A stretch of DNA of 64,000 bases. It comes from a bacterium (lineage in GTDB: Bacteria > Bacillota_I > Bacilli_A > RF39 > UBA660). The notes under the pieces are model-generated. The model was not told where the DNA came from, ran no database searches, and saw only the letters and a list, made by a program, of their open reading frames with translations. Each line of letters starts with the position of its first letter. Position 1 is the stretch's first letter. The stretch spans positions 8,394 to 72,393 of the forward strand of contig CAVIUA010000024.1 in assembly GCA_963645945.1 (NCBI GenBank), read 5' to 3'. This document shows positions 35,883 through 54,775 of this stretch, piece after piece. The position numbers were made by a program, and so were the translations under genes.

Positions 35883-35903
35883 AGGGAAACATCTCCCTTT
35901 TTT
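35882..35903 (+). terminator. Rho-independent terminator after the CYTH gene
   Basis: aaggga-aacatc-tccctt followed by a T-run. Confidence 0.65.
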
Positions 35904-35984
35904 CTTGCTAAAAACAAAAACTTATGGTATAAGAAATTTATCGCCTTAACAAATGATATAATTATTAATAGGAGGAAAATTAAT

Positions 35985-36669: not shown

Positions 36670-38700
36670 ATGGCAATTAGCGAGCAAGAGTTTAAAACGG
36701 AACAAAAAATTTTAAAAAAGGTCCAAAAATTACTAGGTGATAGACTATCTTCATTAGGACAAGATGTATATGATGATGAGGAAAATCTAAAAGAATTCAA
36801 AAAGATGATGTGGGAAGATTCGACCAGTTTCGATGATGCCGAAATACAACAAGTAATGGCCGCAACCGCACACGAAGCTGAAAAAGCCCTACAAAAACAA
36901 GCGTATTTTAAAAAACTTTGTCAAATAAAAAATAAGCCATACTTTGCATCAATAGTATTTAAAGATGATGAAAATAAAATCCATAATATTTACATTTCTC
37001 TAACATACTTAAAAGATGATGACTTAAACAATATTTTATACGACTGGCGTAGTCCAGTATGTAGCTTATTCTATGACTACGAAATAGGACCATGTAGTTA
37101 CAAAGCACCAGGTGGCATATATGAAGGAGAACTAAAAAGAAAAAGACAATATAAAATAGAAAAAAATAAATTAGTAGGAGTGTTTGATAATTCTTTAAAT
37201 ATTGATGACGAAGTCTTACAAGAAGTACTCGCAACAGAGTCAAGTGATAAAATGAAAAACGTTGTTAATACTATCCAACAAGAACAAAATAGGGTAATCA
37301 GAAACTTAGAAGACAATAACCTAATAGTTCAAGGAATAGCTGGCTCAGGTAAAACAACCGTTGCTCTACATAGAATTGCCTTCTTACTATACCGCCTAAA
37401 AAACCTTAGCAGCAACAACATCTTAATCTTTTCACCAAACAACGTTTTTACAGAATACATTTCAGATGTCTTACCATCCTTAGGAGAAGACAATACTCTT
37501 CAAACAACATTTAATGATTATTTATCATACTTTATAACCGAATATAAAAACGTTGAAACATTCTCTGACTTTGTATCAAGATATTATACTTACAGTGAAA
37601 CAAATAAAGACCTAGTAAAATATAAACAAAGTGATGAAATAATATCTGACTTAGATGCCTACTTAAAAGACTACATTTCCAAATGCAAATTTACCGGAGA
37701 CATAATTGAAAATGAATTTAATGTTGTATTAAAAGAAGAACTAAATGAAATGTTAACTTATAAATATAATCGTCTTCCATTGTTTGAAAGATTAGATGAA
37801 ATGGCCAAAAAGTTATCTGCCAACTTTTACAAAGGTAGTAATAAAAAAGCTAAAACTTTTGGTAGACTATTAAAAGAAAATTCTAACTTTGAAAAAGATT
37901 ACAAGAAAATTTATGCAGACTTTTGGACTAGCCCTTTCTGCAAAGTATCCTTAACAGAACGAGAAATAAATGAATTCATAAAAAGAAACATCATTAACTA
38001 CGAAGATGCCTTATTATTCTCCTATATAAAAGGTACTTTACAAGGCTTCCCATATGAATGTAATATCAAACAAGTAGTTATAGATGAAGCCCAAGATTAT
38101 AACCGTCTTCAATACATAATTATCAGTAAAATATTTAAAAAAGCTGACTTTACAATTCTTGGAGACATAAATCAAAATATTAATCCATATTATAGCTATA
38201 ACTCATTAGAAGACCTAAGTCCAATTTTCTCTGGCGATACAAAATACTTAGAATTATTAAAAACATATCGTTCTTCACCAGAGATAATTGAGTACACTAA
38301 CAAAATTCTTAATTTAAATCATGTCAATGCTATTCGTAAAGACAATAATAAACCAGTAATCTTTAGAAAGAATATTACTAATCTAAAAGAAAGCTTACTA
38401 GCTGACATAAACACTTTGCAAAACGAATATAAAAGTACCGCTATAATTACCAAAGATTATAAAGAAGCAGAAGAACTATATGATAAATTAAAAGATAGTA
38501 TTAGTATTTCCTTAGTAGATGCCAATACTAAAAAGTTCAAAAAAGACCTAATCGTTATACCAGCATATATTGCGAAAGGATTAGAGTTTGACAGTGTCAT
38601 AATTTATAATGATCGTAATAATTCATATCGTAAAAACGAAAGAAATCTACTATATGTTGCTTGTACTAGATGTCAGCATGAATTATATATTTATAACTAA
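36670..38700 (+). CDS. helD: HelD-type (helicase IV-like, UvrD/Rep superfamily 1) RNA-polymerase-associated ATPase, copy 1
   Basis: The HelD N-terminal signature is NKPYFASIVF...YDWRSPVCSLFYDYEIGPCSYKAPGG..GEL..KRQY. Walker A is GIAGSGKTTVALHRIAFLLY and Walker B is VIDEAQDY. The C-terminal motifs are YRSSPEI and AKGLEFDSVI...LYVACTR. Confidence 0.8.
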   Translation: MAISEQEFKTEQKILKKVQKLLGDRLSSLGQDVYDDEENLKEFKKMMWEDSTSFDDAEIQQVMAATAHEAEKALQKQAYFKKLCQIKNKPYFASIVFKDDENKIHNIYISLTYLKDDDLNNILYDWRSPVCSLFYDYEIGPCSYKAPGGIYEGELKRKRQYKIEKNKLVGVFDNSLNIDDEVLQEVLATESSDKMKNVVNTIQQEQNRVIRNLEDNNLIVQGIAGSGKTTVALHRIAFLLYRLKNLSSNNILIFSPNNVFTEYISDVLPSLGEDNTLQTTFNDYLSYFITEYKNVETFSDFVSRYYTYSETNKDLVKYKQSDEIISDLDAYLKDYISKCKFTGDIIENEFNVVLKEELNEMLTYKYNRLPLFERLDEMAKKLSANFYKGSNKKAKTFGRLLKENSNFEKDYKKIYADFWTSPFCKVSLTEREINEFIKRNIINYEDALLFSYIKGTLQGFPYECNIKQVVIDEAQDYNRLQYIIISKIFKKADFTILGDINQNINPYYSYNSLEDLSPIFSGDTKYLELLKTYRSSPEIIEYTNKILNLNHVNAIRKDNNKPVIFRKNITNLKESLLADINTLQNEYKSTAIITKDYKEAEELYDKLKDSISISLVDANTKKFKKDLIVIPAYIAKGLEFDSVIIYNDRNNSYRKNERNLLYVACTRCQHELYIYN

Positions 38701-40153: not shown

Positions 40154-40217
40154 ATAATTAAAGATATCTTTTCATTGAATATGACATGTGATATTCTTAT
40201 TTTAAGAGGTGGACGTA

Positions 40218-41324
40218 ATGAATGATTTAATTAATTTATTAACTTCAAAAGAGATAATAATTGTTTATATTGTTGCTGGCGTTGCCTGTTTTTTATACTT
40301 CATTATATACTTAATCGACAAGAGCTATTATAAAAGAAAACAAAAACAAAATACTAAAGAATTAAATAAACTAGTTGAAGATATAAATATAGAATTACAA
40401 AAGGAAGAACCAAGTAATCTTGAAGCTGTAGAAACTATAGAACCTGTAACTTATGTTGAACCTGTTCTTGTAGAAGAACCAGTTACTATAGAGCCTATTG
40501 TTCCAGAAAAGGTTGAACCTGTAGCAGTTGAAATTGAACAAGAACCAGAAAAAGTAGTAGCAGTTGACGAAGTAAAAGAAGTAGAAAAAATAGAAGATGT
40601 AAGCCAAAAAACAAATGAAATAAATAATATTGTAGAAAATAATGATGTAGAAATCATTGAAGCTACAAAAGAAGAACCAGTAGTAGTATTAGAAGCATTA
40701 GAAGAAAAAGAACAAAAAGAAGAAATAACTTATACTGCTATTGAGCCAAACAAGGAAGAAGCTCAAGAAGAGTTAAGACGTTTAACAGAAGAACTAGAAA
40801 AAGCTGAAGAAGAAACTAAAAACATTGACTTAACAAGCTATGAAGAAGCTCAAGAGCGTGACGCAATTATTAGTTTAGATGAATTAATTAAAAAGAGTAA
40901 AGAAATGTATGAGTCTAATGAATTAACTCAATATGAGGATGAGGGAAATGAACCTATTAGTTTAGCTGATCTTGAAAAGAAATTTAAAGAAGCTAACGAA
41001 TTAGTTAATATAGTAGAAAAAGAAGAAACATACGAAGAACCAGTATTAATTGAAAACATTGAAGAACCAGTTAAAGAAGAACAATTAGTTATAGATGACT
41101 TTATTAATGTAAAAGTTGAAGAACCTAAACGACCAGTTTATCAAGAAAATGTTAAATATAAGCCATCACCAATTATTTCACCAATATATGGTATAGAAAA
41201 AACACCTAGTCAAACTGATATAGAATTAGAAAATACAGCTAATTATGAAAAACTTGACGAAGAGATTAAGAAGACAAATGAATTCTTAATGACATTAAGA
41301 GAATTACAAAAACATTTAGATTAA
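40218..41324 (+). CDS. N-terminally membrane-anchored, highly acidic E/P/V/K-rich protein
   Basis: The TM segment is IIIVYIVAGVACFLYFIIYLI. EPV-type degenerate repeats follow (VETIEPVTYVEPVLVEEPVTIEPIVPEKVEPVAVE), then a coiled-coil-like E/K region. The conserved-looking C-terminus is KPSPIISPIYGIEK. ATG 40218 follows an AGAGGTGG RBS. Confidence 0.6.
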   Translation: MNDLINLLTSKEIIIVYIVAGVACFLYFIIYLIDKSYYKRKQKQNTKELNKLVEDINIELQKEEPSNLEAVETIEPVTYVEPVLVEEPVTIEPIVPEKVEPVAVEIEQEPEKVVAVDEVKEVEKIEDVSQKTNEINNIVENNDVEIIEATKEEPVVVLEALEEKEQKEEITYTAIEPNKEEAQEELRRLTEELEKAEEETKNIDLTSYEEAQERDAIISLDELIKKSKEMYESNELTQYEDEGNEPISLADLEKKFKEANELVNIVEKEETYEEPVLIENIEEPVKEEQLVIDDFINVKVEEPKRPVYQENVKYKPSPIISPIYGIEKTPSQTDIELENTANYEKLDEEIKKTNEFLMTLRELQKHLD

Positions 41325-41406
41325 CTCGAATTTTTTCGAGTTTTTTTTATGATTTTCAATTTTACTCAGTATCATATATATAGAGATTGAAAAAATGTTG
41401 AAATAT
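41322..41406. repeat. Left copy of an 85-bp direct repeat bounding the island
   Basis: taactcgaattttttcgag(T8)atgattttcaattttactcagtatcatatatatagagattg(A6)tgttgaaatat. It is identical to 50222-50306 except T8 vs T7 and A6 vs A7. Confidence 0.9.
41325..41348 (+). terminator. Rho-independent terminator inside the left repeat
   Basis: ctcgaa-tttt-ttcgag followed by T8. It directly follows the stop of 40218..41324. Confidence 0.75.
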
Positions 41407-41496
41407 TTAACGCTATGTTTAATTCAGTTTCAAATTAAAAAATTCAATTTGAAATATTAATTTTTTTACTATGCTGTTAAAACTTATTTATTTAAC

Positions 41497-41524
41497 TTGA
41501 CTATTTATAAAAAGTTGATATAAT
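41497..41524 (+). promoter_or_regulatory. Sigma-A promoter for the first island operon
   Basis: TTGACT (41497-41502), a 16-nt spacer and TATAAT (41519-41524). Confidence 0.6.
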
Positions 41525-41640
41525 AAAATACAATTTTTCGGAGATAATGTCCAGAACAACCAAAAGTTATTATCAAAATAGATAAATCTAAATATGTGGA
41601 ATTTAACTTGAGAATAAGAAAATTAACGGGGGAAAAACAA

Positions 41641-42906
41641 ATGGATTTTTTACCAGAACTAGAGGAACTAAGACCAATTAACAATAATAGCAGTAGTGTC
41701 TTTAGTGAATGCTATTTCAATAGAACATTTAATAATCTTTCGTTTGAAAAAAAGCTGCAGGTTCTTTGTGATATTGTAAGACAAAGTATATATCCAAGCG
41801 GTTTTCCTAATCCTGATACTGATATACTAAAAATGAATGGTAATTGCTATACAGCCGCTCATTGTTTTGTACGATACGCTAAACATCTTAATATAGGACT
41901 AAATTCAAGATGCGCATTAGTGAGAAAACGTACATTTGATCCTGATAATGTAACTACAATTCATGTTGTTGCATTGATAGATTCTTCTACCGGTGAAACT
42001 TACCAAGTGGATCCAACACCATTTGTTGGATATAAATATGGAAGTGTTGAAAATATAACATTTAAAAGGATTTATGAGGAATGCGTTATTATTGATAATG
42101 ATATTGAACAATATTTATATCAATTTAGAAAGATAATATATGACGATTCAGTAAATAGATTATTAGATTTAGCTAAAATAGAAGAAATAGTTGAATTATG
42201 CCATATAGTAGAAGAAATACCTATTTTAAAAGGTTATGCGGCTCTAGTTTTAAAAATAGCTTACAAACATCTAGAGAATAAGTACGACAAGGATAAGATG
42301 CAAAGCCTAATAAATAGTATAAAACCTTGCAATAGTGCGAATGAACGAAGTTTAAATGAAGTAAGAAATAAACTACAAATTCAAACAGCCATATGGATGG
42401 AAGAGTTAAGGGACCTAAAGCAAAATAACAGCAATCCAAAAAGACAGCAGGAACTTGCCTCAGCAATTATTCACGAGAATAAATGGTTAGATGATTCGTA
42501 TGAGAAATATGCTTATATTGGTGGAAAAAAGATTAGATTATCAAGTATCAATCCAAGATTTTTTCTTGAAAATAGATATGAAACTTTAGTTACAGAGCAA
42601 TCAGCCCATCATTTAGGGAAATCTGATTTTGTTTTTTTTGAATATGATATAGATCTGGAACAACCAACAGAGCAACTAGGTTTAAACCCGAGAATGTTTT
42701 ATAGCGCTAATGAAGAACAGCTCGGTAGAAATATCAGGGTCTCACTCATAAAAAATGATTCGATAAACAAATTGGTTCTGCCATATGTTCTCAAAACAAG
42801 AAGTTATAGTGAAGATTCAATAAAATTATTAATTGGGTATCCAGAACACCAAGTAATGACTAGATTTATGTACCCAAATCCAAGATTAGTAAAGGTAAAA
42901 AAATAG
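41641..42906 (+). CDS. Hypothetical protein with an N-terminal transglutaminase-like (papain-fold) Cys-His-Asp core
   Basis: GNCYTAAHCFVRYAKHLNIGLNSRCALV....TIHVVALIDSSTGETYQVDPTP fits the transglutaminase-core pattern G.C..FA..F..L.R..GIPAR.V.G.....HAW.EV.....W...DPT. I recognise nothing in the remaining ~280 aa. ATG 41641 follows a GGGGG RBS, and the GTG at 41596 is less likely. Confidence 0.45.
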   Translation: MDFLPELEELRPINNNSSSVFSECYFNRTFNNLSFEKKLQVLCDIVRQSIYPSGFPNPDTDILKMNGNCYTAAHCFVRYAKHLNIGLNSRCALVRKRTFDPDNVTTIHVVALIDSSTGETYQVDPTPFVGYKYGSVENITFKRIYEECVIIDNDIEQYLYQFRKIIYDDSVNRLLDLAKIEEIVELCHIVEEIPILKGYAALVLKIAYKHLENKYDKDKMQSLINSIKPCNSANERSLNEVRNKLQIQTAIWMEELRDLKQNNSNPKRQQELASAIIHENKWLDDSYEKYAYIGGKKIRLSSINPRFFLENRYETLVTEQSAHHLGKSDFVFFEYDIDLEQPTEQLGLNPRMFYSANEEQLGRNIRVSLIKNDSINKLVLPYVLKTRSYSEDSIKLLIGYPEHQVMTRFMYPNPRLVKVKK

Positions 42907-42958
42907 TTATCATGTTAATGAAAAGCTATAGTAAAAAGATTAAGTGAGGTAGATTATA

Positions 42959-45142
42959 ATGAATGAAATATTAAAAAATGAGGCAAAACAATTAGAATAC
43001 ATAGAGAAAGTTATTGAAACAGAAATAGAAAAGAGTTTAGACAGTGAAAGTCTTATAAAGAAGGAAGCTACCAGTCTATCATTTGAGGATAGATTGAGAG
43101 GAACACATCTTAATTTAAACTCGCAACTAGCCAACATAGGAGAAAAAGTAGTCAGATTGGAAAAAGCTAAAAAAAGTCCGTATTTTGGTAGAATAGATTA
43201 TCAGGATGCTAAGACCCAGGATGCTATTCCAATATATATTGGAAGAACTGCTATATCACACGACAATTCGCTAGTTGTTTATGATTGGAGGAGTCCGATT
43301 TGTGGATTATACTATGACAGTGAAATAGGTCCAGTTTCATACAAGTCACCAACTGGTGTTCAAACTGGTAACTTACTTTTAAAAAGACAAATATTAATAA
43401 AAAATGCAAAGCTGTTAAATGCTGTTGATACAAATTTAGTAACTAATGATGAATTACTATTACCATATTTAAATGTAAATGCCGATAGTAGAATGAAAAC
43501 CATTATTGCTTCCATTCAAAAAGAACAAAATGCCATTATTAGATCTGAAAACAACAATGTTATTGTTCAAGGGGTGGCCGGAAGCGGAAAGACATCTGTA
43601 GCTTTACATAGAATAGCATATTTGATATATACGATGGGAGAAAAAGCAAAGTCAAATCAATTTTTGGTTATAGGTCCAAATGATTATTTTCTAAATTATG
43701 TTTCCTCAGTACTTCCTGAACTTGAAACAACACCAGTAGCTCAAAAGACTTTAATAGAATTAATGAATGAATATATTGGCATAGATTTAACATTAGAAAA
43801 TGATTCATTATCTCAAAAGGGTGAAAAAAAAGAAATTGAACAACGTATAAGTGCCTTTAAAGGAAGCCTTAAATATCGTGATTTAATAGATGAATTTGTG
43901 TTAAGATGTTTAGAAGGAAACGCTCTAGTAGAAGACGATTTTAAAATAGATGGCAAAGTCGTTTTTCCTAAAGAAATGATAAGGAAAAGATTACTTGGCG
44001 AGGATGGAAGACACTTAGATTTTAATTCCACATACAAATATTATAAAGCCTTATTCCGCGAAAAAAAGGAAGAAATATATGAATCACTAAACGATGAATA
44101 TAGAAAGGTTTATATGTCGTTGCCAAAAGGTGACCCAAAAAGAAAGGAATATATAGATAAGAGTGAAACATTAAGAAAGTTCATAAATGAGCAAGGTGAA
44201 AAATCCTTAGATAAATATTTTAAAGGTATTAATAGAACATGTTTATCTTTATACGTTTCGTTTATTTCCAATTTAAACGAATACAAAACAGGTTTAACTT
44301 CATCTGAAGTTAATACACTACAAAAAGATACATTAAAAGCCTTAAAAAAGAAACGTATATTTTTTGAAGATATTCCAGCATTATTGTACTTAAATTACAG
44401 ACTTACAAATAAACGCTTGAATTATAGTAATATAGTGATAGATGAGGCCCAAGATTATAGTATGTTCGCTTTCCATGTGTTAAGAAAAATTTTTGAACAA
44501 GGAAAATTTAATATTTATGGAGATCTAGCTCAGTCAATCCATTCGTATAGAGGCATCAAATCTTGGCGTGAACTTAATGAAAGTGTGTTTGATGGCGAAT
44601 GCGAATTATTAGAACTAAGTAAAAGTTATCGTACAACCATGGAAATAACCGAAACAGCTAACAATGTTTTAGCTGTCCTAGATCTAAATCAAGCAGAGCC
44701 AGTTATAAGACATGGAACCGACGTTGGGTATGAAGATATTTCTAACAAAAGTAATGCAAAAATTGATAAGATAAATGAATGGCTTGATGTTGGCTATCAG
44801 ACAATAGCGGTTATTTGTAAAGATGAGAATGAAGCCCAACAGGTACAAGCAGAATTACAAAATGCTCAAGTAGAATCAAAGTACATCTCTGATAAAGATA
44901 CTCAATATACAACGGGTGTATTTGTCTTATCGGTAGCCTCATCAAAAGGATTAGAATTTGATTGTGTAATTGTTAATGATGCTTCAAAAAATGTATATAA
45001 TGCCAATAATGACGTAGATATGCATTTGTTGTATGTGGCCTCAACAAGAGCATTACATGAACAATTGGTATTATATAACAAAGAAATAACTAAGCCATTT
45101 AAAGAAGCAATACAGCGTCCAAAGACATTAAAAAAGATTTAG
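42959..45142 (+). CDS. HelD-type (helicase IV-like) SF1 ATPase, copy 2, island-encoded
   Basis: Motifs are SPYFGRIDYQD...YDWRSPICGLYYDSEIGPVSYKSPTG, GVAGSGKTSVALHRIAYLIY, VIDEAQDYS, YRTTMEI and SKGLEFDCVI...LYVASTR. It is clearly paralogous to 36670..38700. Confidence 0.8.
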   Translation: MNEILKNEAKQLEYIEKVIETEIEKSLDSESLIKKEATSLSFEDRLRGTHLNLNSQLANIGEKVVRLEKAKKSPYFGRIDYQDAKTQDAIPIYIGRTAISHDNSLVVYDWRSPICGLYYDSEIGPVSYKSPTGVQTGNLLLKRQILIKNAKLLNAVDTNLVTNDELLLPYLNVNADSRMKTIIASIQKEQNAIIRSENNNVIVQGVAGSGKTSVALHRIAYLIYTMGEKAKSNQFLVIGPNDYFLNYVSSVLPELETTPVAQKTLIELMNEYIGIDLTLENDSLSQKGEKKEIEQRISAFKGSLKYRDLIDEFVLRCLEGNALVEDDFKIDGKVVFPKEMIRKRLLGEDGRHLDFNSTYKYYKALFREKKEEIYESLNDEYRKVYMSLPKGDPKRKEYIDKSETLRKFINEQGEKSLDKYFKGINRTCLSLYVSFISNLNEYKTGLTSSEVNTLQKDTLKALKKKRIFFEDIPALLYLNYRLTNKRLNYSNIVIDEAQDYSMFAFHVLRKIFEQGKFNIYGDLAQSIHSYRGIKSWRELNESVFDGECELLELSKSYRTTMEITETANNVLAVLDLNQAEPVIRHGTDVGYEDISNKSNAKIDKINEWLDVGYQTIAVICKDENEAQQVQAELQNAQVESKYISDKDTQYTTGVFVLSVASSKGLEFDCVIVNDASKNVYNANNDVDMHLLYVASTRALHEQLVLYNKEITKPFKEAIQRPKTLKKI

Positions 45143-45187
45143 TTAATTCAAAACAGAAAAATTTTATACTGTTTGTAAATTATAAAA

Positions 45188-45216
45188 TTGACAACTAAAA
45201 ATACAATTGTTATCAT
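45188..45216 (+). promoter_or_regulatory. Sigma-A promoter for the phosphatase/glycosyltransferase operon
   Basis: TTGACA (45188-45193), a 17-nt spacer and TATCAT (45211-45216). Confidence 0.6.
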
Positions 45217-45315
45217 AATAAGTAGATTAGAACAAAACATATATGCTTAATTAATAAAATATATAAGACAGGGAAATACATTACTATTTATATAGCTGTA
45301 TTTTAAAGGTTAAAT

Positions 45316-46035
45316 ATGGAAAAAAATAGTTTTTTGGTCGTTAGACACAGTTATGATGATCATAGTTATATTGATGGTAAAAATGATACCGGACTTACAT
45401 TAAAAGGAATCGAAATTGCCAAAAATGCTTGTAAAGAAATCTTGCCTCAAATTGGCGACGGTAAGGTAATAATAAGACATTCAACAAAAAAAAGAGCAAA
45501 GGAAACTGCTGAGATATTAGCAGAATACCTTTCAAAAAATAATATTCCCAGTGAGTGCGTTATGGACGTTGGGTTGACGGAACTATTTCAAGGAACTTTT
45601 GATTTTTTTGATATGGAACATCAAGAAAGAGTTGACTTTCTCCAAAGTTGTTGGGATGATTTTGAAACCTGTAGAATGCAAGGAGATTTGACACATTGTT
45701 TTGGTCAAAATAAAAATAGGAGAATAATCTTAAGACCTGGAGAAAATCATGCACAATGGTCAGTACGCATTGCCACTGGGATGTTACACATCATAGGAGA
45801 TTTAGAACAATCGGCCCAGTCAATAAACATAACACACAGAGGAGCTATCTTTGAAATTGAAAAAATAGTTGAAATGATAAACAACAATATACCCTTTGAT
45901 GATGTAGAAAGGTACCAAACCATTTGGATGCCATATTGTCAAAACAAACAACTACATATAAATGATTTAGAACAAGCCAAAGTTTTAACAAAAAAATATA
46001 TTAGTCAAAGGAGAAAATATGAAAATAATAATTAA
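45316..46035 (+). CDS. Histidine phosphatase superfamily (phosphoglycerate-mutase-like) protein with a variant RHS motif
   Basis: Landmarks are VVRHSYDD (where RHG is expected), GLTLKG, RHSTKKRAKETAEIL, PGENHAQWSVR and ITHRGAI. Confidence 0.6.
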   Translation: MEKNSFLVVRHSYDDHSYIDGKNDTGLTLKGIEIAKNACKEILPQIGDGKVIIRHSTKKRAKETAEILAEYLSKNNIPSECVMDVGLTELFQGTFDFFDMEHQERVDFLQSCWDDFETCRMQGDLTHCFGQNKNRRIILRPGENHAQWSVRIATGMLHIIGDLEQSAQSINITHRGAIFEIEKIVEMINNNIPFDDVERYQTIWMPYCQNKQLHINDLEQAKVLTKKYISQRRKYENNN

Positions 46036-47113
46036 CCAACCTAGGGCATCTTATTTTGTTGGTGGTGCTGAAATGATTTCTTTTGATCACGCCATTAATC
46101 TATATAATTTAGGACATGACATTTATTTTTTTACAATTTTGCCATCAAGTGTAAATTTAAAACACTCCCCACAATTTGAAAAGTTTTATCAAAAGTATTT
46201 TGATAAAATTCACATCATAGAAATTAGTCAGGACAAGAAAGTTGAATACATATATGAAATAGAGCCAGGTCAAGACAGATGCCGTTGGAATATAGAATCT
46301 ATTTATTATAACCAAAAATTATATGAATATATTTTTGAGCATCAAGAAAAATATGATGCTATTTTCTCTTATTATAATTTAGATGCCGTATTCATACCGA
46401 GAAAATATATTTCTAAAAATGTGCTATATTTATGTGGGATTCCAAGGGAACAAAACGATTTTCAAGGAAGTTTTTTATCGGCATATGATACTGTTATTGC
46501 TATTTCTGAAGAAGTAAAAGAATCATGGAAAAGATATTGTAAAAATGAAGTTAAAGTCATATCTACTGGTGTTGATTGTAATAGATTTTCTCCGCAAAAC
46601 AAGTATTCAAGTCCAAAGACGATAAACCTTTTATATGTTGGACGTCTTATTGAACGTAAAAATATTGATAAAATAATACAATCCTATGAGAAATTGCAAA
46701 GCATCTACAATGTAAAACTCATAATCGTTGGTGATGGTCCGGACAGAAAACGTCTAAAAACCATGTCTAATAAATGTGTATTTACAGGAAACGTTCAAAA
46801 TACAGAACATTACTATCAACAAGCAGATATATTTATATCGCCATCAGGTTATGGTGAAGGCCTTCAAGGAACAATATTAGAAGCAATGAGTTGTGGGCTA
46901 ACCATAGTAGCAACCAATACTCAAATCAATAGTGAATTATTAGCTGACGGTAGAGGCTTCGTAGTAGAATCAAACGTTGACTCAATTGTTGAAGGTATAA
47001 AAAGGGCAATAGATAGTGATAGAACCAAAATTTCACAAAAAAATAGAGAATATGTTATTAAACATTATAATTGGAAGAATAAAGTTAATGAAATCTTGGA
47101 GGAATTAAAATGA
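46019..47113 (+). CDS. GT4-family (GT-B, retaining) glycosyltransferase
   Basis: The C-terminal half reads LLYVGRL...KN......A.......L.IVGDGP......, and the EX7E region is SGYGEGLQGTILEAMSCGLTIVAT. It overlaps the previous gene by 17 nt. Confidence 0.75.
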   Translation: MKIIINQPRASYFVGGAEMISFDHAINLYNLGHDIYFFTILPSSVNLKHSPQFEKFYQKYFDKIHIIEISQDKKVEYIYEIEPGQDRCRWNIESIYYNQKLYEYIFEHQEKYDAIFSYYNLDAVFIPRKYISKNVLYLCGIPREQNDFQGSFLSAYDTVIAISEEVKESWKRYCKNEVKVISTGVDCNRFSPQNKYSSPKTINLLYVGRLIERKNIDKIIQSYEKLQSIYNVKLIIVGDGPDRKRLKTMSNKCVFTGNVQNTEHYYQQADIFISPSGYGEGLQGTILEAMSCGLTIVATNTQINSELLADGRGFVVESNVDSIVEGIKRAIDSDRTKISQKNREYVIKHYNWKNKVNEILEELK

Positions 47114-48693
47114 ATATAATTTTTATGAGGCATGGAGAAGCGACTGATAATGTAAAGGAACTGATTTCGGATAGAGAAATTTATTGGTCAACTCTAACAG
47201 AAAATGGAAAAGAGACAGTGATAGAATCGTTAAAATCATTACCAAAAGAAATTACCAAAATTTATGTTTCCCCTTTTCCTAGAACAATACAGACGGCTCA
47301 TTTTGTTCACGAAAAGCATTCCAAAGCAGAGGTCATTATTGAAAAAAGATTACACGAAATAAATCACGGAAAGTATTCAGGAAAAAAGAATAATAATGAA
47401 TTAGATCAAACAAGAATAAAACAAATAGCTGGAGATTATTTTGTTAGGTTTGGTGAATATGGAGAAAATAAGTTTGACATAGAGTTTAGATTATGTGAAT
47501 TTTTGAATGATGTTTATACAAATAATTTTATAGATAATACAGTAATGATAGTTTCTCATGGTTCAATCACTTCCTACATGAAAAGAATTTTAAATGTCAA
47601 GACTCCTCATATAAAAACTGGTAAGATTGAGGAATTTGTCAATGTTGACTTTACACCTCTTTTTAAACACATGAAAAAGCTAAATAAGATAAAGCGTGAA
47701 AAAGAAAAAGAGAGAATACAACAAATCAAAAAGTTAGATGTAAGTGAAGAGTTAAAAGAAAAATTAATAAAAATCTCAAAGAGAGAATTCAACAATATAG
47801 AGTACTCCGATGATTATTTTTTTAATTTTATTGATGGGTTAAATACCAAAAATCTTATCCAAATAAATAATATTGATTTTCCAGAAGGAATAATATTAGT
47901 TTGTTTTTATAATGATTTTTCAAATTTTGCGGAAAAGTGGATTAATCACTATATTAATATTGGAATAAAAAACTTTGTTTTGATTGATAACAATTCTGCA
48001 GATGCTTCAACCTCGATTTTAAAAAAATATGAGAACAAAGTAAATATTTCCTTTTGGAAAATTTCAGATAATTACAACTGTTATAAAATGTGTGGGTGGA
48101 AGCAGCGGATTTTTGAGTTCTATGGTTCTGGGAAACACTACTTAACTGTGGATTCTGATGAACTATTTATATATGAAAATTACAAAAATATATCACTTGA
48201 AGAATATCTAAAATTAAATAAAATACCATTCATAAAAAGTTTAATGCTTGATGTCTACTCTTCAAAGAACATATTTGAGGGAAACATAGATGATTTCAAA
48301 TATGTTGATAAAGGAACCTACAAAATGACAAGTAATGTTCCATACGGACAACGCTTTTTTGGAGGGCCGAGATCTAGGGTTTTTGGAATAAATCCAAGTT
48401 TACAAAAAATACCACTTATTTTCTATAGTGGCAAAGAAATATTTGTAAATGACCATTATTATTATCCGTGGGATATAAATAAAAAAGCAAAGTTCTGTTC
48501 TTATCTATTACATTATAAGTTTTTACCAAGTGATGCAGAAAAGTATGAAACGTTTGTAAAGGATGGAAGACATTGGAATGGTTCCCGTGAATATAAAGTC
48601 TATAATAGAGTTTTTAAAAAAAATAATAATAAACTTTCATTTTATGATGAGAAGTATTCAATTCCCATAGAAAATATAAGCTTTAAATTTTAA
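47110..48693 (+). CDS. Fusion protein: N-terminal histidine phosphatase plus C-terminal GT-A glycosyltransferase (Glyco_tranf_2_4 / GT92-like)
   Basis: The N-terminal part has IFMRHGEATDN, YVSPFPRTIQTA and VSHGS. A K/E-rich linker follows. The C-terminal part reads ILVCFYNDFSNFAEKWINHYINIGIKNFVLIDNNSADAS...LTVDSDELF. An ATGA overlap links it to the GT4 gene. Confidence 0.65.
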   Translation: MNIIFMRHGEATDNVKELISDREIYWSTLTENGKETVIESLKSLPKEITKIYVSPFPRTIQTAHFVHEKHSKAEVIIEKRLHEINHGKYSGKKNNNELDQTRIKQIAGDYFVRFGEYGENKFDIEFRLCEFLNDVYTNNFIDNTVMIVSHGSITSYMKRILNVKTPHIKTGKIEEFVNVDFTPLFKHMKKLNKIKREKEKERIQQIKKLDVSEELKEKLIKISKREFNNIEYSDDYFFNFIDGLNTKNLIQINNIDFPEGIILVCFYNDFSNFAEKWINHYINIGIKNFVLIDNNSADASTSILKKYENKVNISFWKISDNYNCYKMCGWKQRIFEFYGSGKHYLTVDSDELFIYENYKNISLEEYLKLNKIPFIKSLMLDVYSSKNIFEGNIDDFKYVDKGTYKMTSNVPYGQRFFGGPRSRVFGINPSLQKIPLIFYSGKEIFVNDHYYYPWDINKKAKFCSYLLHYKFLPSDAEKYETFVKDGRHWNGSREYKVYNRVFKKNNNKLSFYDEKYSIPIENISFKF

Positions 48694-48707
48694 TAGAGGA
48701 CAAGAAT

Positions 48708-50201
48708 ATGAAATATCTAATATTAAATAATAAGAAAAAAACAACAAAAATTATTAATTATTTAATTGAAAAGGAGTCTCTTCCTAAAATACATAGGAGA
48801 TTAAATATATATACAGAAGATGATACTTTTCAAGTGGAAATTTTAGACAATAAAGTTAGCTATAGAAAAAGTAATAGGCAAAAAACAATTTATATAAAAA
48901 ACAAAAATATAAAATATTTTTTCAAGGTTTTAAACAATGAGAAAAAATATTTTATAAATGATATATTAATATTGAAATTTAAAAACTGTTCTATATTGTT
49001 TGACACTTATCATGGAACAATAATATCAATGGAAAATGAAGAATTATGCTTGGAGTTGGAAAATAAATTTGAACTTATTCATTACTCAAATATTAATGAT
49101 CACAAATTCCATACCATTCCAAAGCCAGAATACATATTTGATGAAATTGGTAATTTAAATGCCAAAATAAAAAACTATGGAGTAAAAACAGGTTTAGATA
49201 TTCGCTCTACAAGCGCTTCTTTAAAGATGCGCGTTTCCAACATTTCTAATAACTATTCATATTTAGAATATTATTACAAATATATAACATCCAATGATTT
49301 ACTGTCTACAAAGTCAGTAAGTAAAAAGAAATATAAAATATCTAATATGAGTATAATAATGCCTGTATACAATCAGGATGTAAGTTATTCATTATTATCT
49401 ATACAAGGACAAAATCTAAGCAAGGATGAGAAGCAAAAGCTTCAGGTTATTGTTATAGATGATGGTTCAAAAAATAATGTTATAGAAGATATTAATAAAG
49501 TAAGAGAAAAATTGGATTTTGAATTACAAATAATTTCTTTTGAAAAAAACCAAGGCCTGTCTAATGCTAGAAACGTTGGGTATGCAATTTCCAAATATGA
49601 ACATATACTTTTCATGGACTCTGATATTATTTTAAGTAAGAATTATATTTATGACATGAGCATCAGACTGCAACTGATACCTAATGCAATATTTATTTGT
49701 ATGAGAAAAAATATAGAAAAAAACTCTGATATTCTAAAGATAAAAAACTTAATAAAAGGCATTGATACTTGTACAGATTTTGATGATAGTAGAGTTGTTA
49801 CCAAAGGCAAGGAATATCACATTGGTTGTGATAAATCGTATGTTAATGAAGAACTTTCAATTTTAGATGACACAGACTATTTCAAGGAGTTGGGCTTTGG
49901 CTCGCAAATAGGCATTTATAATATTGCAACAGTTGTTACAGGACACAACATGGCATTAAATAAATCTTTGATAAGAACAAGTCAACCATTTAGCTCAAAG
50001 TTTAAAGGCTGGGGAATGGAAGATGCTTATTTTTCTTCTAAACTTATATCTGAGGGTTGCTATGTAATACCGGTTTTATCATCATGTGTATATCACACTA
50101 ATCACCCTCCAAGAAGTGGAAGTGAGGAACAAAAAAACAAAGAAGCCCTGATTAATTATAATATCTACAACGATTTATTAAATCAACCGTGGGAGCAATG
50201 A
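48708..50201 (+). CDS. GT2-family glycosyltransferase with an uncharacterised N-terminal domain of about 210 aa
   Basis: The GT-A core is MSIIMPVYNQ...VIVIDDGSKNN...NQGLSNARNVGY...LFMDSDIIL. The C-terminal motif is GWGMEDAYFSSKL. Confidence 0.75.
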   Translation: MKYLILNNKKKTTKIINYLIEKESLPKIHRRLNIYTEDDTFQVEILDNKVSYRKSNRQKTIYIKNKNIKYFFKVLNNEKKYFINDILILKFKNCSILFDTYHGTIISMENEELCLELENKFELIHYSNINDHKFHTIPKPEYIFDEIGNLNAKIKNYGVKTGLDIRSTSASLKMRVSNISNNYSYLEYYYKYITSNDLLSTKSVSKKKYKISNMSIIMPVYNQDVSYSLLSIQGQNLSKDEKQKLQVIVIDDGSKNNVIEDINKVREKLDFELQIISFEKNQGLSNARNVGYAISKYEHILFMDSDIILSKNYIYDMSIRLQLIPNAIFICMRKNIEKNSDILKIKNLIKGIDTCTDFDDSRVVTKGKEYHIGCDKSYVNEELSILDDTDYFKELGFGSQIGIYNIATVVTGHNMALNKSLIRTSQPFSSKFKGWGMEDAYFSSKLISEGCYVIPVLSSCVYHTNHPPRSGSEEQKNKEALINYNIYNDLLNQPWEQ

Positions 50202-50221
50202 TTTTTTTAATGCTGTATAAG

Positions 50222-50306
50222 TAACTCGAATTTTTTCGAGTTTTTTTATGATTTTCAATTTTACTCAGTATCATATATATAGAGATTGAAAAAAATGTTG
50301 AAATAT
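50222..50306. repeat. Right copy of the 85-bp direct repeat
   Basis: See 41322-41406. It contains a second copy of the terminator (ctcgaa-tttt-ttcgag followed by T7, 50225-50247), which here serves the GT2 gene. Confidence 0.9.
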
Positions 50307-50314
50307 GCTATAAT
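50286..50314 (+). promoter_or_regulatory. Sigma-A promoter (extended -10) of the lipoprotein-mtaB-recD2 unit
   Basis: TTGAAA (50286-50291, inside the repeat), a 17-nt spacer and TGcTATAAT (50306-50314, of which TATAAT lies just outside the repeat). Confidence 0.65.
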
Positions 50315-50340: not shown

Positions 50341-51018
50341 ATGAAAAAATATTTTGTGTTACTATTGTGTATATTAGTATTGTTAACAGGTTGTGAAGCT
50401 ACTAAAAAGGAAAAGGCAAAGACAGTTAAAGAAAATAAACCAGAAGAAGTTAATTTAATTGAAGTAAATAACGATACTTCTGAAGAAGTAGCAGATGAGG
50501 ATGTCGTAAATTATGTTTCTGATATTGAAAATGAAATAGAAAATATAAATTATACAGAGTCTAACAAAGAAACTATAAAAGAAAAATTAAAAGAAAACTT
50601 TATTATTTTAACAGACTTTATCTTTTATGATGGAACAATAAAAGGAAAAACTTTTAATGAATTAACTACATCAGCTAAAGAAGAAATATTAGAACTTTAT
50701 GAAAAAATAGATAATAAAATAGAAAGTGTTTATCCAAATTATAAAGAAGAAATAAAAGATACTTCAACAAAAGTTTATAGTAAAGCAAAGGAAATGGCTA
50801 TATCTTTAAAAGATTATTTAAAGAAAAGTTATATTGATAGTGTAGGAGAAGATACTTATCAAAAAGAAATGGAAATAATAAAAGATACAAAAGATAAAGT
50901 AAAAGAAAAGGCAGAACCTGTAATAGATACTGCTAAAGAAAAAACAAAAGAAACTTATGAGAAGGCCAAGGATAAATTAAATACTTGGTATCAAGGAATA
51001 AAAGAAAGTAGTGAGTAA
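50341..51018 (+). CDS. Lipoprotein, E/K-rich
   Basis: The signal peptide has the lipobox VLLTGC (MKKYFVLLLCILVLLTG|C). Confidence 0.75.
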   Translation: MKKYFVLLLCILVLLTGCEATKKEKAKTVKENKPEEVNLIEVNNDTSEEVADEDVVNYVSDIENEIENINYTESNKETIKEKLKENFIILTDFIFYDGTIKGKTFNELTTSAKEEILELYEKIDNKIESVYPNYKEEIKDTSTKVYSKAKEMAISLKDYLKKSYIDSVGEDTYQKEMEIIKDTKDKVKEKAEPVIDTAKEKTKETYEKAKDKLNTWYQGIKESSE

Positions 51019-51019
51019 A

Positions 51020-52291
51020 ATGCGTAGTGTTGGAATATTAACTTTAGGATGTAAGGTAAATACTTATGAAAGTGAATATATAATGAACATTCTAAAAGAA
51101 AATAATTATGAGATAAAAAGTTTTGATGATGTATGTGATGTTTACATAATCAATACCTGTACTGTAACAAATACAAGTGATATTAAGTCCAGAAAAATGA
51201 TTAGAAATGCCATTAGAAAAAATAAAGACGCTTGTGTCGTTGCCATGGGTTGTTTCATAGAAGCTAATAAAGATTACGATATTGAAGGCTTAGATATAAT
51301 TATAGGTAATAAAGATAAATCAAAAATTGTTGAGTTATTAGACGAATACTTTACTAAAAAAGAAACTATCATAAAACTTTACAATGATCCTAAAAGTCAA
51401 TTTGAAGATATGTATATCACAAACTTTCCAGGTCGTACTAGAGCTTTTGTTAAGATCCAAGACGGTTGTGAAAACTTTTGTAGTTATTGCATAATTCCAT
51501 TTGTGCGTGGAAAATGTCGTAGTAAAAACGAAGACAAAGTAATTTCTGAAATAAAAGCCTTAGTTAATAACGGCTATCAAGAAGTAGTTTTAACTGGTAT
51601 TCATACCGGTAATTATGGAGTGGATTTAGATACTAACTTTGCTCATCTTTTAAAAGAACTTATCAAAATCGAAGGTCTAAAAAGACTACGTATTTCCTCA
51701 ATTGAAGCAACAGAATTAACTGATGAAGTACTAGAGGTTATCAAAGAAAGTAACATAATAGTTGATCATTTACATATTCCATTGCAAGCCGGCTCTGATG
51801 AAATATTAAAAGCTATGAATCGTAAATATGATTTAGCTTACTTCTTTAAAAAAATTGAAGAGATAAGAAAGATTCGTCCTAATATTTCTATTACTACAGA
51901 TGTAATTGTTGGTTTCCCAGGCGAAACTAAAGAACTATTTGAAAAAACTATTGAAACTTGTCGCAAATTAGAATTTGCTAAAATTCATGTCTTTCCGTAT
52001 AGTGAAAGAAAAGGTACCAAAGCCATTGAATTACCTAATCATGTTGATCCGAGTGAAAAAAAGAGTCGCGCTAGAGAATTATTACTCGTTTCAAAAGAAT
52101 TAGAAGTAGCTTATGCCGAAAAATTCATTGGCAAAACTGAAGAAGTCTTAATAGAAGAAAACAAAGATGATTATAGTCTTGGTCATACAAGTAATTATTT
52201 ACACGTAAAAATACCTAGAACAATAAAACCAAATAATTTTGTATCAGTAACAATAAAAGAAATAGAATATCCATATTGTCTAGGAGAATAG
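51020..52291 (+). CDS. mtaB: tRNA (N6-threonylcarbamoyladenosine) methylthiotransferase MtaB (radical SAM, MiaB-like)
   Basis: The UPF0004 N-domain is VGILTLGCKVNTYESE...INTCTVT, the radical-SAM motif is CENFCSYCIIP, and there is a TRAM-like end. The start is ATG 51020 or GTG 51011. Confidence 0.8.
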   Translation: MRSVGILTLGCKVNTYESEYIMNILKENNYEIKSFDDVCDVYIINTCTVTNTSDIKSRKMIRNAIRKNKDACVVAMGCFIEANKDYDIEGLDIIIGNKDKSKIVELLDEYFTKKETIIKLYNDPKSQFEDMYITNFPGRTRAFVKIQDGCENFCSYCIIPFVRGKCRSKNEDKVISEIKALVNNGYQEVVLTGIHTGNYGVDLDTNFAHLLKELIKIEGLKRLRISSIEATELTDEVLEVIKESNIIVDHLHIPLQAGSDEILKAMNRKYDLAYFFKKIEEIRKIRPNISITTDVIVGFPGETKELFEKTIETCRKLEFAKIHVFPYSERKGTKAIELPNHVDPSEKKSRARELLLVSKELEVAYAEKFIGKTEEVLIEENKDDYSLGHTSNYLHVKIPRTIKPNNFVSVTIKEIEYPYCLGE

Positions 52292-52303: not shown

Positions 52304-54493
52304 ATGTCATACATTAAGGGAAATTATCGTAAAAGTATTTATACATCAGCACAAGGTTATCACATTGGATTATTTAAAGTAACAGATACCGATGATAAAG
52401 CCATACAACATTATATAAATAAGACAATTACTTTCACCGGTTATTTTCATGAACTTAATGAAACAGATACATATCTTTTTTATGGTAAATTAGTTTTTCA
52501 TCAAAAGTATGGAGAACAGTTTCAAGTAGATAGTTATGAAAGATGTAAACCAGAAGAAAAAGACTCTATAATAGAGTTTTTGACATCCGGACTATTTAAA
52601 GGTATTGGCGAAAAAAAAGCCAAGTCAATTGTAGATGTCTTAGGCAAAGATACATTAAAAATAATTTTAGAAAATCCTGATAACTTAATTCTAATTCCTG
52701 GAATAACAAAAAAAAATATTGAAATTCTTCATAATAAACTTTTGGAATATGAAGCAAGTTATGAAACAATTCTTTATCTTGGTGAACTAGGTTTTTCTAC
52801 AAAAGATGCCATGCTAGTATATAATTTTTATAAGAAAAAAACTAAAGACATAATAGAAGAAAATATTTATAAAATAATTCAGGATATTTATAATTTAACT
52901 TTTAAAAAAATAGATTACATCGCTATAAAATCAGGAGTTAAACAAGATGACAGTATTAGAATAGAAGCCAGTATTATCTACATTATGAATGAAGTAAGTA
53001 ATGCTTATGGACATAGTTATTATTATAAAGAAGAACTATCAGCACTATTACCTAGAGTATTAGGTATACAAGTGTCTGATGAAAAAATAGAAGAAGCTCT
53101 AAAAAATCTCGAGAAGAATCTTTTAATAATTGTAAAAGAAGAAAAGTACTATTTAAAAGAAATGTATGAATCAGAATGCTTAATTGTTAGAAGATTTAAA
53201 ATGTTATCTCATGAAAAAAATATATCAGATAAAAATTTAGATGAAAAAATAAAAGATATAGAAAGTCTTTTAAATATTACTTATAATGAAGAACAATTAA
53301 AAGCCATAAGGGAAAGCTATTTAAAAAAATTTTTAATAATAACTGGAGGACCGGGTACTGGAAAAACCACTATTATGAAAGCAATAACTGAATTGTATCG
53401 TCAAATGAATAAATTAACTTACTCTGAACTTCAAGAAAAAATGGCTCTTCTAGCACCAACCGGTAGGGCAGCTAAAAGAATGACAGAAACAACTCTTCTT
53501 AGAGCCTCAACTATTCATCGCTTTTTAAAATGGCAAAAAGAAACAAATAAATTTCAAGTAAATGAATATAATAAAAGTAAAGTGGAATTTGTAATAATTG
53601 ATGAAGCTAGCATGATAGATACTTATCTAATGGCTAGTCTTTTAAAAGGAATTTCGGCAAATTGTAAAATAATATTAGTAGGAGATGATCACCAGTTACC
53701 ATCTGTTGGTCCAGGCCAAGTATTACATGATTTAATTCATAGTGAAAAATTACCAGTTATCAAATTAACAGAATTATATCGCCAAGGAAAAGATTCTAAT
53801 ATTTTGACACTTGCTTATGATATTAGAAAAGCTTATGTAGATGATAATGTTTTTAACATAGGTGATGACTTAACATTTATTGAAACTAAAAAAACGCTAG
53901 TCGTAAATAATATTATAGAAATAGCTGATGCCTATAAAGATTTATCATACAAGGATTTTCAAATACTTTGTCCAATGTATAAAACACTGGTTGGAATAGA
54001 TGAGATAAATAATCAAATGCAAAAATTTTTTAATCCAAAATCCAAAACAAAAAAAGAAATCACTTCAGCAGATGCAATATTTAGAGAAGGAGACAAAGTA
54101 ATTCAACTTACTAATATGCCTGATGAAAACGTCTATAATGGTGATATCGGCATTATTAAAGAAATAAAAACAAATCCTAAAAAAGAAATAATTATAGATT
54201 TTGACGGGAATATTGTTAAATACACGCCATCTAATTTTAATAATATTCGACTTGCTTACGCTATTTCAATTCATAAGGCTCAAGGTAGTGAATTTGAAGT
54301 AGTAATTATTCCAATAGTTTCAAATTTTAATAAAATGTTATATCAAAAATTAATATATACTGGAGTAACTAGAAGTAAAAAAAGATTATATTTGCTTGGT
54401 GAAATGTCAGCATTAAAACAAGCAGTCAGTAATAATAATGCTGATATTCGTCGTACAACAATTAAAGATTTATTAGAAAACGGTATAAAATAA
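52304..54493 (+). CDS. recD2: RecD2-type (RecD/TraA family) SF1B 5'-3' DNA helicase
   Basis: The N-terminal OB/HhH part includes LTSGLFKGIGEKKAKSIV. Other motifs are ITGGPGTGKTT, LAPTGRAAKRM, IIDEASMID, VGDDHQLPSVGPG and AISIHKAQGSEF. Confidence 0.85.
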   Translation: MSYIKGNYRKSIYTSAQGYHIGLFKVTDTDDKAIQHYINKTITFTGYFHELNETDTYLFYGKLVFHQKYGEQFQVDSYERCKPEEKDSIIEFLTSGLFKGIGEKKAKSIVDVLGKDTLKIILENPDNLILIPGITKKNIEILHNKLLEYEASYETILYLGELGFSTKDAMLVYNFYKKKTKDIIEENIYKIIQDIYNLTFKKIDYIAIKSGVKQDDSIRIEASIIYIMNEVSNAYGHSYYYKEELSALLPRVLGIQVSDEKIEEALKNLEKNLLIIVKEEKYYLKEMYESECLIVRRFKMLSHEKNISDKNLDEKIKDIESLLNITYNEEQLKAIRESYLKKFLIITGGPGTGKTTIMKAITELYRQMNKLTYSELQEKMALLAPTGRAAKRMTETTLLRASTIHRFLKWQKETNKFQVNEYNKSKVEFVIIDEASMIDTYLMASLLKGISANCKIILVGDDHQLPSVGPGQVLHDLIHSEKLPVIKLTELYRQGKDSNILTLAYDIRKAYVDDNVFNIGDDLTFIETKKTLVVNNIIEIADAYKDLSYKDFQILCPMYKTLVGIDEINNQMQKFFNPKSKTKKEITSADAIFREGDKVIQLTNMPDENVYNGDIGIIKEIKTNPKKEIIIDFDGNIVKYTPSNFNNIRLAYAISIHKAQGSEFEVVIIPIVSNFNKMLYQKLIYTGVTRSKKRLYLLGEMSALKQAVSNNNADIRRTTIKDLLENGIK

Positions 54494-54528
54494 TTTTATA
54501 TTTTCCATACTAAAATTGAGGTGAAAAA

Positions 54529-54684
54529 ATGGAAAATTGTTTAAAAAAATGTACTGTTGCGACCATACTACTTGGCACAATGACTGCAATTGCTTATATG
54601 TATTTAAAAAATAATCCAGATATCGTATGCGATATGAAACATCTGGCTAAAAAAACATATGACAAATTAGATGACTTAGATTAA
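54529..54684 (+). CDS. Small (51 aa) single-TM protein, not in the ORF track
   Basis: A GAGGTGA RBS lies 6 nt upstream of the ATG. The translation is MENCLKKCTVATILLGTMTAIAYMYLKNNPDIVCDMKHLAKKTYDKLDDLD and is followed at once by a terminator. Confidence 0.45.
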   Translation: MENCLKKCTVATILLGTMTAIAYMYLKNNPDIVCDMKHLAKKTYDKLDDLD

Positions 54685-54712: not shown

Positions 54713-54775
54713 GAAAAAATAAAGATATACTGTCCTTGAGATAACTTTTCCCTTGTAAAATAAAGTAAAAGAGCG

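Follow-up and report, generated by a model that had tools for sequence, protein, structure and literature searches.

The 64,000-nt stretch of contig CAVIUA010000024.1 analyzed here (hereafter the window) carries an 8.8-kb island of six genes between two near-identical 85-bp direct repeats, each of which holds a transcription terminator and the -35 box of a promoter. We refer to this repeat as the cassette. One cassette without an island is the ancestral and majority state of the site in related genomes, and the island is probably an integrase-free islet whose gain and loss occur through homologous recombination at the cassette. An initial annotation of the window, made from its sequence, had drawn attention to the repeats and had proposed that the DNA between them arrived later than its surroundings.

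The two repeats differing in two homopolymers were found as announced, and hairpin folding and promoter matches agreed with a terminator and a -35 box in each copy. The cassettes, their signals and the genes flanking the island are as follows.

40209..41324, + strand: left flank, gene of an acidic protein with an N-terminal membrane anchor, which adjoins the lipoprotein gene in empty-site relatives
41322..41406, + strand: left cassette (copy 1), with stop codon, terminator, spacer and an orphan -35 box
41323..41342, + strand: intrinsic terminator hairpin of the acidic-protein gene, followed by T8 (folding z about -3.7)
50222..50306, + strand: right cassette (copy 2), terminator for the last gene of the island and working -35 box of the lipoprotein operon
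50223..50242, + strand: intrinsic terminator hairpin, followed by T7 (folding z about -3.7)
50286..50314, + strand: promoter of lipoprotein-mtaB-recD2, with its -35 box within copy 2 and its -10 box just beyond
50341..51018, + strand: right flank, lipoprotein gene
51011-52291 and 52304-54493: mtaB and recD2, downstream of the lipoprotein gene

The copies have a start-to-start spacing of 8900 nt, and their sole differences are T8 in copy 1 versus T7 in copy 2 after the hairpin, and A6 versus A7 after TTG. Both begin with TAA, which in copy 1 serves the acidic-protein gene as stop codon, and both hairpins consist of an 8-bp stem and a 4-nt loop with a T-run 3' of the stem. The TTGAAA of copy 2 is followed, after 17 nt, by a TATAAT outside the repeat (11/12 promoter matches), a layout that is identical in single-cassette genomes; the TTGAAA of copy 1 has no -10 partner. 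A 41-nt core of the cassette occurs exactly twice in the window and in none of 100 shuffles. In a metagenome-wide scan, a 27-nt core was found in two contigs, both of them orthologous empty sites, and no cassette copy lies outside the orthologous site in the relatives' loci. The search for the element elsewhere, which had been suggested at the outset, thus indicated that it is not dispersed, and a REP/BOX-like intergenic repeat was rejected. Between the cassettes lie 8.8 kb with six same-strand open reading frames (ORFs) of 436, 727, 239, 364, 527 and 497 aa. In Pfam and NCBIfam scans, none of the six matched an integrase, a transposase or another mobility family, in agreement with the first description of the cargo.

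To place the site in a wider context, species-representative genomes were scanned with the lipoprotein. Only metagenome-assembled genomes (MAGs) of uncultured human-gut Bacilli were returned, with labels including “Mycoplasma sp. CAG:877” and “uncultured Bacilli bacterium” (Hadza and Nepal samples), which we presume to be RF39-type small-genome Bacilli; exact-protein look-ups of two flank proteins gave no match. The relatives were sorted by flanking-protein identity into clade A (window, L001-L005 and L030-L047; lipoprotein at least 89% identical), clade B (L006 and L029; lipoprotein 70% identical) and clade C (L007-L010 and L016-L021; lipoprotein 57-59% identical). Genes were mapped onto their loci by tblastn, complemented by the junction sequences. 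One and the same set of six genes occupies this site in the window, L002 and L034 of clade A and in one distant species of clade C (L007 and L016-L018). The cassette pair also brackets the island in the independent assemblies L002 and L034. The empty arrangement, made up of the acidic-protein gene, one cassette and the lipoprotein gene, was found in L003, L004, L030, L031-L033 and L038-L047 of clade A, in L006 and L029 of clade B, and in L008-L010 of clade C.

Alignment of the window with L003 or L004 ran up to 41406 and resumed at 50222, and the overlap on the relative is exactly the 85-bp cassette. The single-cassette order that the initial annotation had postulated for the ancestor is therefore confirmed by precise empty sites in close relatives and in two outgroup clades. 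The comparison of flanks with related genomes, which it had recommended, located such sites in L003, L004, L030, L031 and 47 further contigs. For the two commonest lipoprotein variants of clade A, all long contigs examined are empty (24/24 and 23/23). The clusters of island proteins have 10-19 members, compared with 160 for the neighbouring core protein HelD-1, and together with the empty contigs this makes the island a minority accessory element. Filled and empty genomes can be close to each other, with flanks that are 98.2-98.8% identical between L002 (filled) and L030 (empty). Each of the three island-bearers of clade A has its closest flanks in an empty genome and not in another island-bearer, and at least three gain or loss events are needed within this clade. 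Two Logan contigs of 8.9 kb, L035 (8919 bp) and L036 (8874 bp), have the length of the island; their sequence opens within the right-hand portion of the left cassette and closes inside the right cassette, and the two ends of L035 overlap by 20 nt. We do not take them as evidence for circles: a graph break at the repeat fits, though a circular form would look alike.

The island is less divergent than the DNA around it. Between the window and L002, the synonymous divergence (dS, Nei-Gojobori) of the six island genes is 0.03-0.08, compared with 0.16 for the acidic-protein gene, 0.20 for the lipoprotein gene, 0.25 for mtaB, 0.28 for gyrB and 0.64 for recD2, so that island dS is 3-8 times below flank dS. 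Nucleotide identity among the window, L002 and L034 is 96.8-99.1% in the island and 87-97% in the flanks, and the island exceeds the flanks in all three clade A pairs. Against L007 of clade C, dS of the island (0.53-0.96) is below most flank values (0.82-1.76), a comparison limited by saturation. The GC content at third codon positions (GC3) of the island is 0.20-0.24, with a host median of 0.156 (5th-95th percentile 0.115-0.210), and its pooled codon-usage distance of 0.271 is larger than that of all contiguous six-gene host blocks (maximum 0.231). Of the compositional contrast to be looked for between island and flanks, raised GC3 and deviating codon usage were found, whereas bulk GC is host-like. 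The low dS and the raised GC3 support the proposed later arrival of the 8.8 kb.

The boundaries of this block were mapped by sliding-window divergence. Between the window and L034, divergence is 3-6% in the flanks and about 1% in the island, the change occurring in steps near 41.3 kb and at 50247. Between the window and L002, the number of differences per 300 nt rises from 4 on the left of copy 2 to 29 on its right, and the right-hand step is also present, less sharply, between L002 and L034. The low-divergence block ends at the cassettes. The recently moved unit is thus the inter-cassette segment and not a longer piece including flanks, and this segment has spread horizontally among lineages that are about 3-7% divergent.

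The cassettes themselves differ among genomes, and their variants are listed below.

Window, both copies: cassette variant ATGATTTTCAATTTTACTCAG
L031, single copy: cassette variant ATGATTTTCAATTTTACTCAG
L002, both copies: cassette variant ATGACTTTTAAATTTACTCAG
L030, single copy: cassette variant ATGACTTTTAAATTTACTCAG
L003, single copy: cassette variant ATGATTTTTAAATTTACTCAG
L034, two copies: 2 sites differ between the copies

Derived single-nucleotide polymorphisms (SNPs) in the cassette are lineage-specific, and the two copies of one genome have them in common: TTTTCAATTTT marks the window and GACTTTTAAATTT marks L002. Paralogous copies are thus more alike than orthologous ones, which indicates concerted evolution, either from gene conversion or from a duplication re-created out of the resident cassette. 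L031 combines L002-type flanks with a window-type cassette, and this mixture suggests that cassettes have themselves been exchanged. A further variant was seen at positions 1-146 of L001, upstream of the lipoprotein promoter, where a different gene end and terminator (GGAATGAAATTTATTTCATTCC) are joined to the cassette at the T-run. The L001 contig ends 146 nt upstream of this half-cassette and its alternative upstream sequence matched nowhere else; it may represent a third allele with other cargo at the site.

Lacking a recombinase of its own, the island would depend on homologous recombination by the host, with the cassette as the crossover substrate. The classical product of Campbell-type integration is an insert between two copies of the homology, reversible via these direct repeats. 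In the case of gain, the cassette of incoming island DNA would cross with the resident cassette, and this DNA could be circular (Campbell-type) or linear (“ends-in”). Loss would occur by recombination or slippage between the direct copies, restoring one cassette, and the near-identity of the copies would be maintained by gene conversion. The left copy would terminate the acidic-protein gene, and the right copy would terminate the island and supply the -35 box of the lipoprotein gene. The duplication in this way leaves the terminator and the promoter of both neighbours intact, the island borrowing the right-hand terminator. A Campbell-type crossover, favoured by the initial annotation, would be one of several possible homologous-recombination routes, and the RecA-dependent loop-out that it had foreseen is one that we infer from the precise empty sites. 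The island resembles a Campbell-type product in its structure and in being reversible by repeat recombination; it differs in its short homology of 85 bp, in the host-type SNPs of both copies and in that no replicon or circular form was seen.

Several points weigh against gain and loss at the cassette. Only three island lineages are available in clade A, and two of the three pairwise comparisons include the window. The left boundary between the window and L002 is gradual, the left third of the island being 2-4% divergent. Both cassette copies carry SNPs of the host lineage, whereas one hybrid copy of donor type would be expected from a single crossover with a foreign cassette, and later gene conversion or mismatch repair must therefore be assumed. 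The two copies of L007 are only about 70% alike, in the spacer only, and its right terminator is different; the duplication there may be older, not homogenised, or of separate origin. L035 and L036, whose ends fall within the repeat, give no direct evidence of a circular intermediate, and these organisms are not known to take up DNA. The sequences compared are metagenome assemblies throughout, which is a general limit. A rival reading is exchange by double crossovers in the flanking genes after DNA uptake, in the style of minimal mobile elements, with the duplication as a historical by-product that plays no part in movement. The site does lie between conserved genes, neighbouring slots vary in presence or absence without long repeats (e.g., a GH25 gene between recD2 and gyrB), the flanks are mosaic (recD2 of the window is only 87% identical to the others), and the module found at L012 and L022 has no flanking repeat. 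We nevertheless hold such exchange to be unlikely, if still worth some weight, because the low-divergence block stops at the cassettes without reaching into the flanks and because the cassettes and the adjoining flanks are host-type.

An ancestral island inherited vertically, with many losses by repeat-mediated deletion and no transfer, would account for its presence in two distant clades at one site and for the large dS between the window and L007, and direct repeats would make precise loss easy. Set against this are the 3-8 times lower dS of the island within clade A, its higher identity in each of the three pairs, its GC3 and codon usage unlike those of the host, and the large majority of single-cassette sites, also in the intermediate clade B, which make pure inheritance improbable. 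Integration could also be site-specific and catalyzed in trans, with the 85 bp as att site, either by an integrase encoded elsewhere or by Xer at a dif-like sequence. IMEX elements, such as the CTX phage and the gonococcal genetic island, exploit XerCD at dif, and the island resembles them as an integrated element that lacks its own recombinase and has direct repeats at its ends. A dif-like site was rejected, however, the best match of the cassette having 13/28 mismatches to the B. subtilis dif sequence. The window has no GC-skew switch, and gyrB/gyrA lie close by, which suggests an origin-proximal location and not the terminus. Moreover, what is repeated is an ordinary terminator-promoter spacer, of which relatives conserve one copy, and the repeats of L007 are degenerate; we consider integration in trans very improbable. 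Finally, the fact that all data are metagenome assemblies and that Logan contigs break at the repeat could point to an artefact, such as a chimeric MAG join, or to a dispersed repeat. The chance of this is close to nil: the same junctions recur across projects (window, L002, L034 and 12 contigs for P0213), the 85-bp repeat is shorter than a read and no other locus was found to carry the cassette core. The identical junctions in independent assemblies led us to reject an assembly chimera.

Recombination at the cassette, which we prefer, has partial counterparts among described systems. Minimal mobile elements of Neisseria are variable blocks between conserved genes (Saunders & Snyder 2002; Snyder et al. 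2007; PMC3787668). The island is like them in being a variable block between conserved flanks, without mobility genes, that differs between the closest relatives and matches distant ones, with exchange by homologous recombination, which in our case is deduced. It is unlike them in that its exchange ends at a duplicated 85-bp cassette instead of within the genes on either side, its host is not known to undergo natural transformation, and alternative cargo is only hinted at by L001. A classical integrase island, prophage or integrative and conjugative element was rejected, with no recombinase, no tRNA in the window and no relatives in viral contigs. A composite of transposons or insertion sequences was also rejected, there being no transposase, and the repeats being 85-bp direct ones identical with the intergenic sequence already resident at the site. 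The site offers a clean natural case of the spread of a gene block in small-genome uncultured gut bacteria without visible mobile-element machinery. It also raises the prospect that 85 bp of regulatory DNA may suffice as a reusable docking and excision site that keeps both neighbouring transcription units intact.

The module was also found at other loci. In L022/L023, the six genes are in the same order with other chromosomal neighbours (ORF4, the first island gene product, 56% identical). In L012 (5025-13613), the order between UPF0154 and rplU is HP1, GT4, phosphatase-GT2, GT2, ORF4 and HelD-2 (ORF4 50% identical), meaning that the two operons are swapped and the order is circularly permuted. 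In L025/L026, ORF4 and the four-gene operon are present without HelD, beside defence-like genes (ORF4 44% identical), and distant ORF4 homologues accompany other glycosyltransferases. No flanking repeats were detected at the other-locus modules of L012 and L022, and the cassette duplication is therefore a property of the insertion site, not of the module. Distant ORF4-glycosyltransferase modules were also noticed near defence-island-type genes in L025 (1-9939), L013 (6803-7672) and L027 (6617-9434), the neighbours being NOV_C, DUF6339, HATPase_c_3, DUF3644/EC042_2821, MazG-like and SLFN-like helicase genes.

The features of the island between the two cassettes are the following.

41407..41595, + strand: island leader with palindrome, promoter P1, small ORF and AATACAATT motif
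41428-41454: palindrome of 27 nt, TTTCAAATT...AATTTGAAA, upstream of P1
41497-41524, + strand: promoter P1, TTGACT-16-TATAAT
41547-41585, + strand: small ORF of 12 codons, MSRTTKSYYQNR, with a GGAG box
41596..42906, + strand: ORF4, cytoplasmic, Cys84-His123-Asp139 triad on a putative transglutaminase/arylamine-N-acetyltransferase-like fold, family small and uncharacterised
42959..45142, + strand: HelD-2, second class I HelD, 32% identical to core HelD-1
45188..45216, + strand: internal promoter P2, TG-extended, TTGACA-17-TATCAT, starting the second operon
45316..46035, + strand: HP1, histidine phosphatase (branch 1), cytoplasmic
46019..47113, + strand: GT4-family (GT-B) glycosyltransferase
47110..48693, + strand: histidine phosphatase (residues 1-165) fused to a GT2-type glycosyltransferase (residues ~260-527)
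48708..50201, + strand: GT2 glycosyltransferase with an unassigned 200-aa N-terminal domain

P1 is predicted to drive ORF4 and helD-2. P2 would drive HP1, GT4, the phosphatase-GT2 fusion and GT2, in a unit ending at the terminator of copy 2. P1 is conserved in L007 and L022, and P2 in L012 and L022. The 9-mer AATACAATT occurs at 41527-41535, right after the -10 box of P1, and at 45200-45208, in the spacer of P2; the P1 occurrence is kept in L007 and L022. It may be an operator common to both promoters. On the minus strand, the same motif bears a likeness to an extended -10 box. The small ORF sits in the P1 leader immediately upstream of ORF4 and is not conserved in L007, and ORF4 itself starts with GTG without an obvious ribosome-binding site. 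No membrane segment was predicted in any of the six island proteins, and all products of the island are predicted to be cytoplasmic. No Rfam family exceeded the threshold in the window; a sub-threshold PreQ1 match inside the GT2 gene was taken as chance.

The cargo had been listed as a TGase-like protein, HelD-2, two histidine phosphatase modules and three glycosyltransferase modules, and Pfam, NCBIfam and structure matches agreed with this list. The ORF4 family comprises 49 clusters, of which none is named and none has a Pfam domain, and ORF4 relatives were found neither in viral contigs nor in plasmids. Across 42 homologues, His123 and Asp139 never vary and Cys84 hardly does. The AlphaFold2 model of ORF4 (predicted local distance difference test score 90.5) gave weak Foldseek matches to arylamine N-acetyltransferases and the CPR-C4 protease (E 0.04-0.2, TM-score ~0.2-0.3). 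The designation “TGase-like” appears reasonable at the level of fold and triad only. HelD-2 scored 424.7 with NF041464 (HelD_BACSU; cut-off 419) and matched the B. subtilis HelD structure 6wvk_H with E=3e-82 across residues 60-718. By these matches it is a class I HelD, in the family of ATPases that recycle and protect RNA polymerase. The core protein HelD-1 (36670-38700, 676 aa) is encoded 2.6 kb upstream of the island and is also above the HelD_BACSU cut-off. As HelD-1 is present in all relatives, island-bearers have two class I HelDs.

The phosphatase-GT2 fusion belongs to a widespread, strongly conserved family of more than 146 clusters (46-76% identity), which also occurs stand-alone in Clostridia; against plasmids, it gave distant GT2 matches only. 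In L048 (8001-9488), on a contig of spore-forming Clostridia, a 62%-identical homologue stands alone beside a GNAT acetyltransferase and a TetR/ABC pair, and the function of the fusion is therefore independent of ORF4 and HelD. Foldseek searches with the model of the fusion gave matches for the phosphatase domain only, which structurally resembles small-molecule phosphatases, including the mycobacterial GpgP Rv2419c; the glycosyltransferase domain was assigned no further than GT2. No island protein reached the curated cut-offs of GpgS, MshA or BshA. A known anti-phage defence system was rejected after a PADLOC search, in which both HelDs had only generic UvrD/GajB-like matches and the remaining five proteins had no match.

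Two-step glycosides are made by a glycosyltransferase acting on a phosphorylated acceptor, followed by a phosphatase, as for glucosylglycerate (GpgS/GpgP) and mycothiol (MshA/MshA2). The island is similar in that histidine phosphatases accompany its soluble glycosyltransferases or are fused to them, and dissimilar in having three glycosyltransferase domains, two phosphatases and a Cys-His-Asp enzyme. By analogy, the cargo could tentatively be seen as a cytoplasmic pathway of this kind, combined with a thiol-dependent acyl- or amide-transferase-like enzyme. It might also, with equally little confidence, be coupled in this lineage to an extra HelD that protects RNA polymerase. The set had not been recognised as a described system, and a literature search for HelD, glycosyltransferase and histidine phosphatase indeed gave nothing relevant; no published link of HelD to the set of ORF4, phosphatases and glycosyltransferases was found. 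It thus represents a conserved, uncharacterised six-gene set that is horizontally mobile among human-gut Bacilli.

Multiple and horizontally transferred helD paralogues were described in gut bacteria (PMC8655204). HelD protects RNA polymerase from rifampicin (PMC8655204, PMC12802891), and HelD/HelR protection factors of RNA polymerase belong to rifamycin-responsive gene sets (PMC8655204, PMC10719064, PMC12802891). Rifampicin-responsive convergent dual promoters were reported upstream of helD and of glycosyltransferases, defined as a sense and an antisense promoter, with spacers of 16-20 bp, that lie 45-100 bp from each other in the 5' UTR (PMC12802891). The island is like the HelD/HelR systems in that HelD-2 is assigned to class I, and unlike their gene sets in lacking this geometry. 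A dual promoter upstream of ORF4-helD2 was rejected: the sole antisense candidate, 41553->41525 (9/12), overlaps P1, and antisense promoter-like matches of that grade are at chance level (69 found, 71 expected). A tolerance role is worth testing because HelD proteins protect RNA polymerase from rifamycins. The cargo would, with low confidence, probably be a conditionally useful stress or antibiotic-tolerance trait, and tolerance to RNA-polymerase inhibitors, suggested by analogy, is a lead and not a finding. Under a more far-reaching reading, target protection by HelD-2 would be combined with transferases modifying the drug (e.g., of the rifamycin class in the gut) or a metabolite. It is quite doubtful that the island forms a self-sufficient recombinase-free unit, with the cassette as attachment site and loop-out and re-entry across species by RecA only, that carries such an RNA-polymerase-inhibitor tolerance cargo.

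The chromosomal neighbourhood of the island seems rich in swap sites. The slot between recD2 and gyrB (window 54494-54835; L031 14357-16762; L039 14357-14640) varies in presence and absence: some strains have a 644-aa GH25 (lysozyme-like) gene, L034 has a 261-aa gene, and the window and L039 have nothing. The junction of the GH25 slot shows only ~14 nt of microhomology and no long repeat, and the absence of a cassette-like duplication there makes the 85-bp duplication specific to this island. The block upstream of HelD-1 (window 34718-36497; L031 1-5071; L042 254-5080) is also strain-variable, the variants being small unknown ORFs, queuosine-salvage/GCHY-1/GTP-cyclohydrolase II genes, or carbamoyltransferase-GT2/dNK/Ham1/GreA genes. 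Within the right flank, recD2 of the window (52304-54493) has 86.5-89.7% nucleotide identity to its clade A relatives, which are themselves 94-97% alike, and the adjoining mtaB is 92-95% identical. Probable explanations are that recombination imported the recD2 segment of the window or that the gene is diversifying.

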